The notes under the pieces were generated by a model. That model was not told where the DNA came from, did not search any database, and saw only the letters and a list, made by a program, of their open reading frames with translations. A program made the position numbers and the translations under genes. DNA of 46,407 bases from Parcubacteria group bacterium (GTDB lineage: Bacteria > Patescibacteriota > Patescibacteriia > UBA1558 > GWA2-36-10): the NCBI GenBank assembly GCA_003104935.1, contig PQAE01000011.1, forward strand, positions 1 through 46,407. The letters are read 5' to 3'. Below, piece by piece: positions 4,094-40,225 of this stretch (positions are counted from its first letter, which is position 1; every line of letters starts with the position of its first letter).

Positions 4094-4120
4094 AGTGGAC
4101 AGCAAGGGATTTGAACGCCT
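4094..4120 (-). pseudogene. tRNA 3' fragment (T-loop plus acceptor strand)
   Basis: Minus strand reads GGCGTTCAAATCCCTTGCTGTCCACT; no D-arm or anticodon arm upstream; followed by palindrome ATCCTTCGCTC..GAGCTACGGAT. Confidence 0.45.
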
Positions 4121-4179
4121 AACTCCTCGACTCTGTAAAGACGCCTAGTGTTTATGGGGCAAATGTAAATATGTTATTC

Positions 4180-4256
4180 TGGTGGGCGCTTGGGGATTCG
4201 AACCCTAGACCTTCTCGGTGTAAACGAGACGCTCTAACCAGCTGAGCTAAGCGCCC
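4180..4256 (-). tRNA. tRNA-Val(TAC)
   Basis: Full cloverleaf GGGCGCTTAGCTCAGCTGG..TTTACAC..GTTCGAATCCCCAAGCGCCCACCA. Confidence 0.95.
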
Positions 4257-4257
4257 A

Positions 4258-4472
4258 TGGTGGACTATATCCCGCCACGGCGGGATGACCTCCGCGTTGC
4301 CTGCCCGCCATTGTCATCGGCTGGTGGAGATAGCCGGACTTGAACCGGCGACCTTCTGCTTGCAAAGCAGGTGCTCTACCAATTGAGCTATATCCCCGAC
4401 AGGCGATGGCAGGCGGGCAAACGCGGCGCTCCCTGCCTACCGGCAGGCAGGTACCAACTAAGCTAACAGCCC
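4258..4472 (-). pseudogene. split outer tRNA-Ala containing a nested tRNA and palindromic insertions
   Basis: Acceptor GGGCTGT/ATAGTCC-ACCA with G3:U70; 20-bp palindrome in D-loop (4432-4451); anticodon loop interrupted by 4300-4417; T-arm replaced by hairpin ATCCCGCCGTGGCGGGAT (4269-4286). Confidence 0.85.
4322..4397 (-). tRNA. tRNA-Ala(TGC), intact, nested
   Basis: GGGGATATAGCTCAATTGGTAGAGCACCTGCTTTGCAAGCAGAAGGTCGCCGGTTCAAGTCCGGCTATCTCCACCA. Confidence 0.95.
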
Positions 4473-4518
4473 ACGATTTGACCTGCCCCGCCCGCGGGCG
4501 GGACAAGCCCCGAATAAA

Positions 4519-4604
4519 TGGTGGGCGGAGAGGGACTTGAACCCTCACAGGATTGCTCCCACAGGCACCTCAAGCCTGCGTGTATACCATTTCACCACCC
4601 GCCC
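4519..4604 (-). tRNA. tRNA-Leu(GAG)
   Basis: Cloverleaf with long variable arm; anticodon arm CAGGC-TTGAGGT-GCCTG; CCA end. Confidence 0.94.
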
Positions 4605-4679
4605 GTAACTACACGCCCGCCAAAGGCGCGGCGTAGATACCAATTTTATTATTTGTCATCATTTTTTTGGAAGCGGTCA

Positions 4680-4724
4680 TCCCGCCAAAGGCGGGACGCG
4701 TCTACCAAGTTTCGCCATTCGCCC
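4680..4724 (-). pseudogene. 5' fragment of a Leu-like tRNA ending at a palindrome
   Basis: GGGCGAATGGCGAAACTTGGTAGACGCG followed by TCCCGCCTTTGGCGGGA where the anticodon arm should be. Confidence 0.7.
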
Positions 4725-4732
4725 TCTTGGTT

Positions 4733-5113
4733 TTATATTTTGACTTCCTTGAGTTTTTTGGAAAAATGACGGAGATAACCCAGATTTGCCCGACGGACCT
4801 CTGCCTTTTTGACGGCCTCAATCTTAGCTATTGAGGGAGAGTGTAGAGGAAATATTTTTTCTACCCCAATACCGTCAGATATTTTGCGGACAGTAATAGT
4901 AGCACCTATCTCGCGACTGTGTCTTTTGGTCAAAATCATGCCTTCATAGACCTGGATTCTTTCCTTGTCTTCGCCTTTAGACCCTTTTTCCTTGATTTTT
5001 TCGTGCACGCGAACAGTCATTCCTGGTTTAAGATCATTCACCGGGTAAGCCGTATCCTTTTTAGCGGTCTTAGCCTTTACTTCTTTTTCAGAATGTTTTT
5101 TATCCTCGCTCAT
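4733..5113 (-). CDS. rplS: 50S ribosomal protein L19
   Basis: PGMTVRVHEKIKE..KERIQVYEG, TITVRKISDGIGVEKIFPLHSP, VRRANLGYLR. Confidence 0.97.
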   Translation of the reverse strand: MSEDKKHSEKEVKAKTAKKDTAYPVNDLKPGMTVRVHEKIKEKGSKGEDKERIQVYEGMILTKRHSREIGATITVRKISDGIGVEKIFPLHSPSIAKIEAVKKAEVRRANLGYLRHFSKKLKEVKI

Positions 5114-9700: not shown

Positions 9701-10235
9701 CCGGATCAGTGCCCAGATTAGCATCGTTGCCGCCGGGGTCAACATAAAGAGTGCGGCTGGTCGAACCGCCCACAAAATCGGGCCGGGTGGTAGCACTGCC
9801 GGTTTTTACAGTCCCGCTACCGCCATCCGCATCAGTGACCGTGGCTCTAAAATCATAGGCGGTGCCGGGGCTTAAAAACATTAAACTTCCGTTATAATAG
9901 GTGTAATTAGTTGTTCCGATCAGGCGGTTATAGCTGCGCGGGGGAGTATAAGCTAATTTCCAGGTGCTATCGCCTGTTTTTTTATACTCCAAAGTAAAGC
10001 TGGCATTGAGGTTGTCGTCTCCTGCATTGATTATTTCTACACCAATACTTTCAATAGTCGGAGTACCGATAATCGCCTGCGGCCGGCTAGCGTTGTCTCC
10101 GGCAGCCAGATGTATAAAAAAACCGCGCACTACTATCTCTTTGCCAAATATAGCTATAGTAAAGACGCCGACTAAAAAAGTAAGATAATAAGGCCAATAA
10201 TTTCTGTGTCCGAATTTTTTTAAGTAGTTGAACAT
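6741..10235 (-). CDS. large secreted/membrane-anchored right-handed beta-helix protein with TSP1-like Cys repeats and C-terminal Ca-binding repeats
   Basis: N-terminal TM; FN3-like domain (LSPGTAYDFRATVTD); YVDPGGND..PLKTIQHA..GDRILV pectate-lyase-like start; three WxCxxWSAC repeats; DSDGDGL/DTDGD repeats. Confidence 0.85.
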   Translation of the reverse strand: MFNYLKKFGHRNYWPYYLTFLVGVFTIAIFGKEIVVRGFFIHLAAGDNASRPQAIIGTPTIESIGVEIINAGDDNLNASFTLEYKKTGDSTWKLAYTPPRSYNRLIGTTNYTYYNGSLMFLSPGTAYDFRATVTDADGGSGTVKTGSATTRPDFVGGSTSRTLYVDPGGNDANLGTDPASPLKTIQHAANISQAGDRILVQSGTYNENIIISRSGTSNSPIIFESAQQATNPGANPAKIEGGEAELAVIDTKDNWLPDDHIPANAGVYYTTLDSWTAGADNPIYVAMANEKIYAYWYYPYNSSVQTFSNFINGLYCSSNCATGCCASNVSGGYWYDSSKKRLYIKLPNSDDPDSHVMHVVKRNSSGIKMTDVSNVVIRGFDIAFNHIGIHFFGTNVGSHDNTVEKNILHHNGSGVMLGENTANGAMVYGNLIQNNKIYDSKVSEWPWSSVKLNDVESDGITLFAGRSNIVRRNTINDVFNGIMMSIFWDLANVNFNKESDINDNNLYDIGDDAIEPEGANINLRIFNNKVYRVARATAAQSGISLAPVSIGPTWVVRNILSDIFQSALKYNVDIQTSIGQTLVFHNTVYNRTADFMALFRIWRTSFGLKAILRNNVFYSSGNESSGWGEGYVFEDINTSHSNPPITLDMDYDSLFTDRQSLCGQNCRFTVWTNTPYTTLALFKSASNQESHGQSLNPKLANPGANDFTPINGSPLIDSGVLLPGINDNFIGNGPDIGAIESTALPCIENWSCSDWSACANNTQSRTCTDLNNCGTTNNRPALTQACVVLCTPNWQCGDWSACVNNTQTKTCADSNNCGTTSGRPPLTQSCSAVTPPPPNCTPNWICSAWSACVNNTQTKTCADSNNCGTTSGRPPLTQSCSAVTPPPPTQGIDNLDTGALLALQGVKGAAVYYIANNGKKYVFPDSKTYSTWYSDFNKVQRVSLTKLDTYANGGVMPYRAGTKLITHPDTSKIYAVEPGGVLRHVLTAALAGSLYGNNWMSQVQDVIPGFFSTSYLIGAPLDRTWPNGVLAKYNNNYFYLVANKKRKFTSISVLKLNRFDPNNAIALNNLDNYTDGYDIISLEKPLASFRPGVTEAELLGASPGSLGDLTDSDGDGLSNYEETKVWLTNPNNPDTDGDHYSDGLEIRSGYNPSGNGTIEAWINR
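7571..7835. repeat. intragenic direct repeat, 150-bp period
   Basis: 7571-7685 identical to 7721-7835 (115 bp); a third diverged copy follows at about 7880-7995. Confidence 0.9.
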
Positions 10236-10316
10236 GGATATTTTACGGTTTAATTTTAACAGAAATAGGAGGATAAATAAAGGAAAATAAAAAAGACCTT
10301 TTTGGTCTGGTCATCA

Positions 10317-10391
10317 TGGTGCCCTCGGCAGGAGTCGAACCCACATTTCTTGGTCCGAAGCCAAGCGTGATATCCATTTCACTACGAGGGC
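10317..10391 (-). tRNA. tRNA-Arg(TCG)
   Basis: GCCCTCGTAGTGAAATGGATATCACG-CTTGG-CTTCGGA-CCAAG..GTTCGACTCC..CGAGGGCACCA. Confidence 0.92.
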
Positions 10392-34673: not shown

Positions 34674-34972
34674 GTCCCGGTAGTTCAATGGATAGAATAG
34701 GAGCCTTCCCCCGCAAAATAAACGAGCGAAGCGAGAACCTATAAAAGAGGGTCCCGCAACACTAAAGTATTTTACGCGCCCATAGCTCAATGGATAGAGC
34801 AACAGCCTTCTAAGCTGTAGGCTGCACGTTCGAGTCGTGCTGGGCGCACCAAATAGCAATATGTGCGGGGTCCTCGCAAATATAAGTACTCGCTATAGCT
34901 CGTACACATTTGCGGGATAAGCTCTAGATTCAGGTTCCCCCGGACTACGATCCGGGGCTGGCCGGGGCACCA
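34674..34972 (+). pseudogene. split outer tRNA-Arg(TCT) containing a nested tRNA
   Basis: 5' half GTCCCGGTAGTTCAATGGATAGAATAGGAGCCTTC (34674-34708); insert 34709-34917; 3' half TAAGCTCTAGATTCAGGTTC[CCCCGGACTACGATCCGGGG]CTGGCCGGGGCACCA. Confidence 0.88.
34776..34851 (+). tRNA. tRNA-Arg(TCT), intact, nested
   Basis: GCGCCCATAGCTCAATGGATAGAGCAACAGCCTTCTAAGCTGTAGGCTGCACGTTCGAGTCGTGCTGGGCGCACCA. Confidence 0.94.
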
Positions 34973-35034
34973 TCCTGCGCCTGCGGGCTTCGGATGGCTT
35001 TGCCACAATAGTTTAGAGTAAAGTTTAATTTCGT

Positions 35035-35109: not shown

Positions 35110-36711
35110 TCGTGTGAGAACGGAGGTTAAAACCTCTGTTTTTGCTTTGTTTAAAGGCGTTTTATGCGGTTCTAACCTTAGGTATTCCGCCTCTAAGGCA
35201 GGGTAACCATTTTTAATAGGCACGAGCCACTCATTGGGCTCAATAGTTAGCTTTCCGTCCCTGATTATAGGGCTTTTACCTAAGGCCAAGAGTATCTCTC
35301 GCTTTAGTTCTAACCCCTTGTCGCCTTTTGCCGTTAGAAACGCCTTACGGGCATAAGTGGCGAAAGTAAATGTTTTTTCAGTAAGCTCCAGCCATTTTTC
35401 CGCTCGGTTTTCAGTTTCCCTTAAACCACCTTTTAGTTTATCTATTTCCGCTTGAAGTTCTTGTTTCTCCTTGAGGAAAGCTTGGTCATCAATAAGTTGG
35501 CGGTATCTCATTTTAGTTAGTTCGTCCAATTCATTTTGAGTTTGCGTCAAAGTTTTGTGTTGCATTTCGTAGATTTTGGCTCGGTCTTCAATCTCGGTGT
35601 CGTTCTTTTTATTTAGTCCCTCTAAAGCCCACTCTAAAAATTCAGGTAGTATAGTATATTTATCTATTTCCTTTTCAATTAGGAGCTCCAAATCTTCCTC
35701 CCTTATGTTTTTCCTTTGGGAGCAGGGGACATCTTTTTTTCGGCGTGTGCAGTGATAGTAAGTAAAGGTTTTTAACTCCCCAGTTTTCTTTATAACTTTA
35801 GTATGACTTTCGGCTGTATGGAAGCATCCACACTCGCCGCATACTATAGCTCCCGTAAAAGCAAATTTATGCGTTTGCGGTCTTATTTTTCCCCTTCGGC
35901 CAAGAACAGATTGAACCCTATCATATTCTTCATTTGTAATCATTGGTTCGTGCTTGCCTTGATAGTGCAGGCCACTACTTCGGGTGATGATGCCCGTATA
36001 AAAACGATTAGTAAAAATTCTATAAATTCCACTTTGAGAAAGCTTATTGTCCGTGCTTTTTCTTATTTTTCTTGTTCTAAAGCCCCAGTCGTCAGTGGCC
36101 ATTTTTAGGATTTGGCGGGCGGTGTAATTTCCCGTGAGCATTGTGTCCCACATCCTACGGACAAGATTAAAACGCTCTGGGTCTTTGGTTATGGTGTGCT
36201 TTATCGTGTCGTTAAGATAACCTAAGGGAGCTATGTTTGGCATCCAACCCTTTTCCAATTTACTTTGCAGGCCTCTCTTAGTATTTTTGCTTAAATCTAT
36301 TATAAATTGGTTGGCCACGCCGCTCTCAACACTAAATAGCAGGACATTGTCTTCGGGGAGGTATTGGCGGTCAATAGTTTGGATAGATTTAAGTGTCCCT
36401 TGCTGTAATAGCCAGCTTAGTTTGCCACTATCAATCGGGTTGCGGGAGAGGCGGTTTATTTGCCAGCATAAAATACCATCGGCCTCGTTGTTTTCAATTC
36501 GCTGTATTATTTCCTCAAATATAGGACGATTATTTGGCTTCTTGGCTGACTTCGCCTCGGTATAAACTTTTTTTATAGTCAGACCAGAATCATTAGCGAA
36601 TTTTTTGAGGCGATTTATTTGGTCATCTATACTTTGAACTTGGCGGTCTTCTGATTCGGAGCTTTTTCGGGCGTAGAGAAAGTATTTAATTTTAGTGCTG
36701 TTTAGTGCCAT
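35047..36711 (-). CDS. large serine recombinase
   Basis: YARKSS catalytic Ser, RLSRN, recombinase domain (PLGY; GKHEPMI), Zn ribbon CGECG..YYHC, coiled coil; C-terminus runs antisense through tRNA-His. Confidence 0.95.
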   Translation of the reverse strand: MALNSTKIKYFLYARKSSESEDRQVQSIDDQINRLKKFANDSGLTIKKVYTEAKSAKKPNNRPIFEEIIQRIENNEADGILCWQINRLSRNPIDSGKLSWLLQQGTLKSIQTIDRQYLPEDNVLLFSVESGVANQFIIDLSKNTKRGLQSKLEKGWMPNIAPLGYLNDTIKHTITKDPERFNLVRRMWDTMLTGNYTARQILKMATDDWGFRTRKIRKSTDNKLSQSGIYRIFTNRFYTGIITRSSGLHYQGKHEPMITNEEYDRVQSVLGRRGKIRPQTHKFAFTGAIVCGECGCFHTAESHTKVIKKTGELKTFTYYHCTRRKKDVPCSQRKNIREEDLELLIEKEIDKYTILPEFLEWALEGLNKKNDTEIEDRAKIYEMQHKTLTQTQNELDELTKMRYRQLIDDQAFLKEKQELQAEIDKLKGGLRETENRAEKWLELTEKTFTFATYARKAFLTAKGDKGLELKREILLALGKSPIIRDGKLTIEPNEWLVPIKNGYPALEAEYLRLEPHKTPLNKAKTEVLTSVLTRWGGYWESNPGQRDHNPLFYR

Positions 36712-40024: not shown

Positions 40025-40087
40025 TATAAATAATTAACAATTTAATTGCCTAACCCTCGTAAAGTAAAATTCCGAGGTATGGCATAA

Positions 40088-40225
40088 AACTCCCAACCAC
40101 GATAGTAAGCTCCTCATTGAGCACTCGTGGTTGGGTCAGTGGCCGAAAGGTTATTGGGTGGCCCGAAAGGGTTGCCGCTCGTGGGGGGCTTTCTGTTTCC
40201 ACGAGCACTAAATCCCAACCACAAA
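40088..40225 (+). ncRNA. structured multi-hairpin leader upstream of mod
   Basis: Stems CCCAACCACGA/TCGTGGTTGGG, two GAAA-capped hairpins, GCTCGTGG/CCACGAGC; second CCCAACCAC just before the ATG. Confidence 0.6.

Follow-up and report, generated by a model that had tools for sequence, protein, structure and literature searches.

A tRNA-Ala(UGC) gene nested in a disrupted tRNA-Ala(UGC) gene of a Parcubacteria group bacterium: probable replacement of the resident gene by a short tRNA-bearing cassette

The contig PQAE01000011.1 of a Parcubacteria group bacterium (assembly GCA_003104935.1) was analysed over 46,407 nucleotides (nt), and this whole stretch is referred to as the window. On its minus strand, at positions 4258–4472, one transfer RNA (tRNA) gene lies within another: an intact tRNA-Ala(UGC) gene is held in the anticodon loop of a second tRNA-Ala(UGC) gene. 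It is very probable that the outer gene was the original tRNA-Ala(UGC) and that it was inactivated and replaced at the DNA level by an inserted cassette which carries the inner gene. Similar cassettes are present in many bacteria with small genomes.

The preliminary description of the locus had proposed the nested architecture from the letters of the sequence, and this was confirmed by sequence reading, ARAGORN and Rfam, all its elements being present at their coordinates when the minus strand was read from 4472 to 4258. The outer gene (4258..4472), now a pseudogene with three lesions, begins with GGGCTGT-TA-GCTT-AGTTGGTA (4472–4452). A perfect palindrome of 20 nt, CCTGCCTGCCGGTAGGCAGG (4451–4432), is located in its D loop between GGTA and GAGC, and the outer segment GAGCG-CCGCG-TTTG (4431–4418) follows. 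The cassette of 118 nt (4417–4300) is inserted at the junction of the outer anticodon positions 35 and 36. It consists of a left arm of 20 nt, CCCGCCTGCCATCGCCTGTC (4417–4398, the A end), the intact inner tRNA-Ala(UGC) with an encoded CCA (4397–4322) and a right arm of 22 nt, GCCGATGACAATGGCGGGCAGG (4321–4300, the B end), which is complementary to the left arm. In the 10-nt core the arms are complementary except for one C.A mismatch and one G.T pair. The outer segment CAA-CGCGG-AGGTC is found between the right arm and a hairpin of 18 nt at the place of the T arm; the hairpin is ATCCCGCCGTGGCGGGAT (4286–4269), and the outer 3' end, ATAGTCC-ACCA, finishes at 4258. The outer anticodon loop is thus TTTG and CAA split by the cassette, with the anticodon UGC. 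The G3:U70 pair ascribed earlier to the outer gene was found there (GGGCTGT/ATAGTCC), and the inner gene has it as well (GGGGATA/TATCTCC).

The borders of the lesions were determined by comparison with an uninterrupted gene. A scan of metagenome contigs for the first 21 nt of the outer gene yielded five stretches, two of which (L191 and L193) bear an uninterrupted tRNA-Ala(TGC). Outside the lesions, the outer gene is identical to the tRNA-Ala of L191 at 62/63 nt (slices of 21/21, 14/14, 15/15 and 12/13), the first 21 nt being forced by the search pattern and the free positions amounting to 41/42, an agreement well beyond chance. The three lesions are 20 nt added in the D loop, 118 nt added between TTTG and CAA, and 14 nt, CCCGCCGTGGCGGG (4284–4271), in place of the 13-nt T core of L191, CGGTTCGAATCCG. 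The sole further change is one C-to-T in the 3' strand of the acceptor. No target duplication was found at the 35-36 junction, where the outer halves abut exactly relative to L191. The comparison sets the junction at 35|36, so that the outer anticodon is UGC and not GGC; of the two boundaries considered previously, the one after base 33 is thereby excluded. The similarity of the rejoined outer sequence to tRNA-Ala, on which the nested reading had been made to depend, is evident from the same 62/63 nt. An alignment of the 215-nt locus with uninterrupted Ala genes by MAFFT was matched to the inner gene and was unusable for the borders.

A comparison of orthologous clusters, suggested in the preliminary description, was conducted with ten genomes of the same family that have the complete syntenic locus; in an eleventh, L003, the locus is cut after Leu. 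All ten relatives had a plain, uninterrupted Leu(GAG)-Ala(TGC)-Val(TAC) cluster. GGGC is the start of the Ala genes of all ten, of the outer gene and of the Ala(GGC) and Ala(CGC) genes of this genome, whereas the inner gene starts with GGGGATA. The mean identities to the ten relatives over the 5' 48 nt were 84.4% for the outer gene (maximum 91.7%) and 77.7% for the inner gene (maximum 83.3%). Over the 14 acceptor nt the corresponding values were 77.1% (maximum 92.9%) and 56.4% (maximum 64.3%), respectively. The inner and outer genes share 72.7% identity and are therefore not products of a simple tandem duplication, as had been argued before. When 401 sampled genomes of the phylum were compared, the inner gene was most similar to an Ala(GGC) gene from another family, also borne by a cassette (genome G378, 88%). 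In genome G105 the roles are swapped, with an Ala gene of the GGGGATA type outside and one of the GGGCTGT type inside. The swapped types and the G378 match indicate that these tRNA alleles cross lineages. Since the outer gene matches L191 and has the acceptor type of the relatives, which the inner gene lacks, the outer gene is best read as the dead resident and the inner gene as its foreign replacement.

The inner gene has a full cloverleaf, G3:U70, the anticodon UGC and scores above threshold, whereas the outer gene was not recognised as a tRNA gene by any of the searches. Rfam, run at E values up to 10 over 4100–4800, listed only the inner Ala, Val and Leu genes and not the outer one. With the lesions in place, to which all the bit scores refer (they do not describe the excised form), the inner gene reached 74.3 bits with RF00005 and the outer gene remained below the gathering threshold of 29 bits, while a custom Ala model built from the ten syntenic Ala genes of the relatives gave 80.0 bits for the inner gene and two pieces of 9.0 (4411–4472) and 7.5 bits (4258–4306) for the outer one. 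The outer T arm has no conserved GTTCRANYC loop, the core being replaced as described above. In-silico excision, by which the outer gene had been expected to be checked, did not restore it: no tRNA was called by ARAGORN in six excision variants. The intron mode of ARAGORN (introns of 0–400 nt) returned only chimeras of neighbouring tRNAs and left the outer gene uncalled. The genome, rated 100% complete, has Ala genes for GGC and CGC and a single UGC gene according to ARAGORN, the inner one. The earlier idea that a gap in the Ala inventory might make the outer gene necessary was thus not borne out, all three genes being present. The outer gene is predicted to be dead and dispensable. An RNA run covered 2/30 bins of the locus, by a contig of another organism's tRNA, and has no bearing on expression.

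The arms around the inner tRNA are, as far as recurrence in other genomes indicates, the conserved ends of a cassette family. The arm pattern, the cores CCCGCCTGCC and GGCGGGCAGG spaced by 80–125 nt, was found in 17 of the 401 genomes, at 22 places, and the reversed pattern, used as the control, at none. Of 40 relatives, one had the pattern, and its distribution is patchy. A single tRNA gene was held by 20 of the 22 places, and reading of the flanks revealed that all these 20 cassettes are nested and co-oriented within an outer tRNA. The repeatable mechanism which had been proposed from two loci is thereby supported by the 20 nested cases in 17/401 genomes, together with the Arg and Thr(CGT) loci of this genome described below. 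The cassettes are 104–133 bp long and carry at least eight tRNA types: Ala, Lys, Thr, Val, Gly, Ile, Leu and Cys. The site is the D arm in 12/20 cases (after GGYAGA or GGTA) and the anticodon loop in 8/20 (34|35 to 37|38). The outer anticodon was legible and equal to the inner one in 16/20 cases and obscured by further inserts in the other four; no discordant pair was found. Both orientations of the arms relative to the tRNA occur, 17 one way and three the other.

The ends of the cassettes are terminal inverted repeats whose cores pair at 9/10 positions (eight Watson-Crick pairs and one G.T), with one C.A mismatch. Beyond the 10-nt core, about three variable bases are followed by a second GCC/GGC helix, the arm positions 14–16 of which are paired in 14/19, 16/18 and 13/18 cassettes, respectively. 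When degenerate ends were allowed, 26/401 genomes matched, and three further tRNA-holding cassettes with other end combinations were recognised by eye. In this small sample, perfectly complementary ends were found in 0/23 cases. The asymmetry of the arms was rejected as a conserved rule, since the result of A and B ends only came from sequence collected with the A/B pattern. The arm pattern was also detected in six viral contigs, none with a tRNA. Two of the viral contigs, L185 and L187, have tRNA-less 'empty' arm elements (CCCGCCTGCC + 13 nt + GGCGGGCAGG), repeated beside a conserved flank.

A filled and an empty site were found in congeners of another genus. Genome G211 has a cassette of 110 nt in Thr(CGT), whereas the orthologous gene at the syntenic Gly(CCC)-Thr site of its congener G193 is uninterrupted. 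The two differ by exactly the cassette, from core to core, without target duplication. In addition, G211 keeps a 3' remnant of an allele that is still carried by a third congener, G152, which indicates that the replacement at this Thr site was probably serial.

The palindrome in the D loop of the outer gene is, judging from its recurrent context, the signature of a widespread small GIY-YIG nuclease cassette and not a product of random decay. The context of GGTA, palindrome and GAGC was first met in two genera of the same family, at 92–95% identity. In a scan with one genome per species, the palindrome CCTGCCTGCCGGYAGGCAGG was found between GGTA and GAGC of the D loop, nearly invariant, in at least 118 public genome stretches, for which 125 instances were listed. 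It lies within a duplicated 5' part of a tRNA. Among the matches listed, the record titles name Patescibacteria of many classes, Omnitrophota, Planctomycetes, Bdellovibrionales and others. In 65 of the 125 listed instances (64/117 of those with at least 300 nt downstream), the palindrome is followed at a distance of 2–44 nt by a GIY-YIG open reading frame (ORF) of the same strand. These ORFs make up 65 of the 76 GIY-YIG regions in the listed loci; one reached 53.1 bits on PF01541. They are about 80–100 amino acids (aa) long and comprise the catalytic domain only. In 80/125 listed instances there is also an intact tRNA of the same type after the palindrome (at least 75% identity over 14 nt); most of these are tRNAs for Asn, Phe, Thr and Lys, and four are Ala(TGC). 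The tRNAs of L046, L075, L098 and L105 (Ile, Phe, Asn and Gly, respectively) are complete but for the 20-nt D-loop palindrome.

At the Ala locus the outer gene continues normally after the palindrome, which means that only the palindrome is present here; no GIY-YIG match was found on the contig of this locus (C11). Elsewhere in the genome there are nine small GIY-YIG ORFs, and several of them adjoin tRNA remnants: on contig C8 an fMet remnant, an ORF and tRNA-Met, and at the start of contig C6 a Tyr remnant, an ORF and tRNA-Tyr. One viral contig had the palindrome with an ORF. Phages were not accepted as the main vector, given this single contig and the six viral contigs with tRNA-less arm patterns.

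The third lesion, the replacement of the T core by CCCGCC-N(2-4)-GGCGGG, was found in five tRNA remnants of this genome. It was rejected as a widespread signature, being present in only 1/400 other genomes of the phylum sample and in 0/40 relatives. The half-sites of the hairpin are similar to the six bases with which the arm cores begin, and the hairpin may be a collapsed older cassette.

Known splicing and mobilising enzymes were searched for. EndA (PF01974) had no match in the genome, rated 100% complete, while the control search was positive in four archaea. Neither of the two junctions has a bulge-helix-bulge, both being in a continuous helix in the predicted fold. An intron of the archaeal type was rejected on these two results. 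No Rfam intron family matched at the gathering score or at E values up to 10, and the insert is 118 nt long with 76 of them tRNA, on which grounds a group I intron was rejected. The Y1 transposase (PF01797), TnpB (PF07282) and the DEDD transposase of IS110 (PF01548) had no match each in this genome, and elements of the IS200/IS605, REP/RAYT (repetitive extragenic palindromic sequences and their associated tyrosine transposases) and IS110 kinds were discarded because the Y1, TnpB and DEDD enzymes are absent from it. An integrase island was also rejected: the 118-nt cassette contains no ORF, and there is no direct repeat of a tRNA part at 35|36. The genome has tyrosine and serine recombinases, none of them at the cassette. 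The nearest recombinase-like match in the window (PF00239 serine recombinase, 71.6 bits) is 30 kb away at 36247–36681 on the minus strand, in an open frame of 569 aa about 1.2 kb from the Arg/His tRNA locus. A search of 2.09 Mb of sequence revealed no long armed cassette with an internal ORF. A link between the tRNA cassette and GIY-YIG proteins is not claimed, with a GIY-YIG ORF within 1.5 kb at 2/22 loci and no armed cassette bearing an ORF. By analogy, a nuclease acting in trans is a reasonable candidate for moving the tRNA cassette, because SegB, a GIY-YIG enzyme of phage T4, is described as recognising a conserved motif of tRNA genes (PMC2330249).

The following course of events would account for the locus. 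A non-autonomous cassette of 118 bp, consisting of imperfect inverted-repeat arms and a complete foreign tRNA-Ala(UGC) in the same orientation as the resident gene, very probably entered between the anticodon positions 35 and 36 and left no target duplication. The inner gene would then be transcribed from the promoter of the resident tRNA cluster, and the inner tRNA freed by RNase P and the ordinary processing of tRNA 3' ends. With the inner gene supplying what would be the only tRNA-Ala(UGC) of the cell, the disrupted outer gene would be free to decay, and its D-loop palindrome and T-core hairpin would be the footprints of further elements. The agreement of inner and outer isoacceptors could mean that an insertion is survived only when the cargo rescues the lost gene, or it could result from homology-guided targeting.

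Several observations weigh against this interpretation. No transposase or nuclease was found in or beside the cassette, and GIY-YIG ORFs lie within 1.5 kb at only the 2/22 loci given above. As tRNAs are short, the main evidence for the probable foreign origin of the inner gene is its acceptor stem, together with a single match of 88%. No genome of the same genus shows an empty site here; the filled and empty sites compared are those of another genus and of another tRNA. That the 10-nt arm core is invariant is partly due to construction, the core being the search pattern. Finally, 10/20 outer genes elsewhere were still called by ARAGORN after excision (offsets within 2 nt), so some of those genes may be used at the RNA level.

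Four other explanations were weighed against replacement by a cassette. A local rearrangement would involve a duplication of the Ala gene, one copy of which was nested by palindrome-driven recombination or repair, and the palindromes would be generic GC-rich repeats. The many GC-rich hairpins near the tRNA genes of this genome are in its favour, as is the near confinement of the T-arm hairpin to this genome. However, the acceptor type of the inner gene differs from that of the outer gene and of all ten relatives, and the same arm ends enclose at least eight amino-acid types in 17/401 genomes of many families. The precise difference between the filled and the empty site of G211 and G193 and the near-identity of the palindrome in at least 118 public stretches, with titles from several phyla, also contradict it, and this explanation is very unlikely.

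Insertion of DNA would, as in replacement by a cassette, be the first step if the outer halves and arms had been kept as an exapted scaffold, the helix of which aids the processing or stability of the inner pre-tRNA. Flanking helices are known to aid processing in the stalks of ribosomal RNA (rRNA) operons, which offers a parallel. The 215-nt RNA is predicted to fold as a nested cloverleaf with a minimum free energy of −106.7 kcal/mol (z = −4.49; 0/200 shuffles were as stable), in which the arms lengthen the outer anticodon stem into a long helix. This strong predicted fold, the common orientation in 20/20 nested cases and the conservation of the second GCC/GGC helix at positions 14–16 with variable bases between would all suit a scaffold. 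On the other hand, the outer genes decay in various ways, with extra hairpins, truncations and unreadable anticodons (4/20), and most tRNAs of the genome are without such arms. A scaffold function is accordingly given little probability.

The same fold and its z value could be expected if the insert were removed at the RNA level, as an intron that is itself a tRNA, with the inner tRNA released by RNase P and 3' processing, the outer halves ligated or held together by the helix of the arms and two functional tRNA-Ala obtained per transcript. The anticodon loop is a known place of tRNA introns, the pairing of the arms is maintained despite their differing sequences, and the ten outer genes callable after excision fit this possibility. 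At the present locus, however, the T-loop core is replaced, a hairpin of 20 nt occupies the D loop and no tRNA was called after excision. EndA was not found in a genome rated 100% complete, the junctions lie in a continuous predicted helix without a bulge-helix-bulge, Rfam found no group I intron, and 12/20 cassettes are in the D arm. Moreover, the inner and outer anticodons are never discordant, so that an outer tRNA would add no decoding capacity. Excision from the RNA is therefore considered highly improbable here.

Contigs from two runs of another study span the nested structure with no joint at the junctions: record 11 of X2 covers 4265–4823 with one difference and record 19 of X3 covers 4221–4460 with none. 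An assembly or binning artefact fusing reads from the tRNA-Ala genes of two organisms, the chimera named in the preliminary description as fatal to it, has next to no probability, for although the genome is a metagenome assembly and conserved tRNA genes draw contigs of other organisms, with depth spikes at 4341–4402, these contigs cross the locus without such joints and the identical architecture occurs in independent assemblies of other genomes.

Replacement by a cassette was also indicated at other tRNA genes of the genome. The nested Arg locus 30 kb away, to which a matching architecture had been ascribed, was verified in its coordinates, its insert at 35|36 and its broken T loop. Its outer tRNA-Arg(UCU) pseudogene (34674..34972, plus strand) is split into CTTC and TAA at the 35-36 junction by an insert of 209 nt (34709–34917), which holds an intact tRNA-Arg(TCT) (34776–34851), and a hairpin breaks the outer T loop (34938–34957). 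The outer acceptor, GTCCCGG, is similar to GTCCCTA of a relative's Arg(TCT), and the inner one is GCGCCCA. Other nested or remnant-flanked tRNAs of the genome are those of Thr, Val, Gly, Asp, Ala(GGC), Asn, fMet and Tyr. On contig C6 (10395–10730), three generations of Thr(CGT) are found. The intact inner gene lies in an armed cassette in the D loop of the outer gene, and the latter has an extra insert of 47 nt in its anticodon loop. The third Thr remnant is heavily deleted and has a T-arm hairpin; a GIY-YIG ORF of 100 aa (10143–10361) comes directly after it. At the beginning of the same contig (1–400), a tRNA-Tyr that is not in the ARAGORN list is preceded by a GIY-YIG ORF and by the 5' remnant of a Tyr gene. 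The anticodon loop of this remnant has the same insert of about 47 nt, CCACCGCC..., as the outer Thr gene, and inserts of the CCACCGCC type also occur in relatives (L015/L090, L088).

In the Ala cluster itself, tRNA-Val begins one base after the outer gene and tRNA-Leu(GAG) lies upstream (ARAGORN). A class II, Leu-like 5' remnant of a tRNA, GGGCGAATGGCGAAACTTGGTAGACGCG, is found at 4724–4697 of the minus strand, with the hairpin TCCCGCCTTTGGCGGGA directly after it (4696–4680) and the intact tRNA-Leu(GAG) downstream (4519–4604, minus strand). The remnant of 28 nt has 64–86% identity to the 5' ends of the relatives' Leu(GAG), the compared slice being offset by 2 nt. The Leu gene of the cluster thus seems to have been replaced as well. 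The ORF at 4733–5113, taken for rplS in the preliminary description, is conserved in the relatives. The tRNA-Val(TAC) (4180–4256, minus strand) scored 88.9 bits on the Ala model of the relatives, above the 80.0 bits of the inner Ala gene, and by these scores the lineage has unusually similar genes for Val and Ala. Downstream of tRNA-Val there is a stretch resembling a tRNA 3' end (...GGCGTTCAAATCCCTTGCTGTCCAC; 4100–4175 of the window, minus strand). Next comes a hairpin motif, ATCCTTCGCTC...GAGCTACGGATGG, which recurs after the Arg locus (34966–35010, plus strand) and after a tRNA cluster on contig C4 (about 50260–50310).

Three further RNA features were observed. A tRNA reported as undetermined by ARAGORN (contig C2, 74799–74895) was called in the intron mode as Lys(TTT) with an insert of 21 nt in the anticodon loop and may be another interrupted tRNA. 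Two copies of tRNA-Thr(GGT) on contig C3 (77309–83906), with a tyrosine recombinase gene beside each, have the appearance of an ordinary integrative element located at a tRNA gene. A LOOT RNA (RF03000) was found at 40047–40176 on the plus strand with 80.3 bits, the gathering score being 46.4.

A more far-reaching possibility, which is tentative and of modest probability, is that the replacement by cassettes belongs to a natural 'destroy and rescue' system, a distinct class by which tRNA genes would be replaced again and again. Cassettes carrying only a tRNA would land in the conserved loops of tRNA genes, and only the strikes on the same isoacceptor would be survivable. Nucleases acting in trans, with the GIY-YIG proteins as first candidates, would break the alleles that are uninterrupted, whereby the cassettes would spread through populations and across lineages, and the GC hairpins in the dead genes would be collapsed cassettes. 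If correct, this would mean a new class of selfish elements and a major route of horizontal tRNA turnover in small-genome bacteria. It would also provide a testable case for a natural element of this kind and a role for the common uncharacterised small GIY-YIG proteins.

Bacterial tRNA genes are usually seen as stable, vertically inherited landmarks and as passive sites for large islands, whereas here the tRNA gene would be the cargo. The cassette would replace the resident gene from within, repeatedly, and the old halves would remain as a dated fossil. Replacement of this type would explain pseudo-tRNA fragments and odd calls of a 'tRNA with insert' in small-genome bacteria, and such transfer could confound tRNA-based phylogeny and the inference of codon usage in these lineages. 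Annotation pipelines would gain usable motifs, namely the cores of the two arms and the D-loop palindrome of 20 bp.

In open-access papers and preprints, neither the palindrome string nor nested tRNA genes of bacteria nor GIY-YIG/tRNA cassettes were found to be described, and the tRNA-replacement cassette is apparently undescribed. The disrupted tRNA genes of archaea and eukaryotes (intron-containing, split and permuted) need a bulge-helix-bulge and EndA and yield one tRNA. They share with the present locus the inserts in the anticodon or D loop and the flanking helices; in contrast to them, the insert here is itself a tRNA, the outer gene is degraded and EndA was not found. Miniature inverted-repeat transposable elements (MITEs) and REP-like palindromes are short, non-autonomous and GC-rich, have inverted-repeat ends and many copies, and occur as 'empty' hairpin forms. 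The cassette has the same properties, copies and empty forms included, but it carries a functional tRNA gene, its target is a tRNA of the same type, it makes no target duplication, and the genome has no Y1/RAYT, IS110 or TnpB gene. Synthetic 'cleave and rescue' elements, engineered with Cas9, destroy an essential gene and supply a resistant copy of it. Their logic is shared by the cassette, whereas no nuclease is tied to the natural one.

The closest counterpart of the palindrome-linked ORFs is SegB of T4, described as a free-standing GIY-YIG homing endonuclease from a phage tRNA gene cluster, whose recognition site includes the T-psi-C motif and which spreads with the neighbouring tRNA genes (PMC2330249). 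A GIY-YIG gene among tRNA genes is likewise found in the cassettes of palindrome, GIY-YIG ORF and tRNA. SegB is, however, a two-domain phage protein, whereas the present ORFs encode about 80–100 aa with the catalytic domain only, belong to cellular genomes and are tied to a nearly invariant palindrome of 20 bp that lies within the duplicated 5' part of a tRNA; at the Ala locus there is no such ORF, and the tRNA cassette encodes no protein. In the rRNA genes of Candidate Phyla Radiation (CPR) bacteria, insertion sequences and homing endonucleases have been reported, with GIY-YIG among the ORFs, in an article whose main text mentions tRNA 0 times (PMC11270868). The organisms, the conserved RNA genes as targets and the GIY-YIG ORFs are similar, but inserts in rRNA are removed or tolerated in the RNA, while here the interrupted gene would be replaced. 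Genomic islands carrying an integrase, plasmids and viruses can integrate into tRNA genes and restore them, and the model of archaeal tRNA gene disruption in Caldiarchaeum is of this kind (PMC3293823). Common to these systems and the cassette, mobile DNA lands in a tRNA gene, a working tRNA is maintained and tRNA fragments are left behind. Such integrative elements are kilobases long, encode a recombinase and replace only the part of the tRNA overlapping the attachment site, which gives direct repeats. The cassettes, in contrast, are 104–133 bp long, have a complete tRNA as the only cargo and inverted repeats at their ends, produce no duplication, and leave the new gene enclosed by the two halves of the old.

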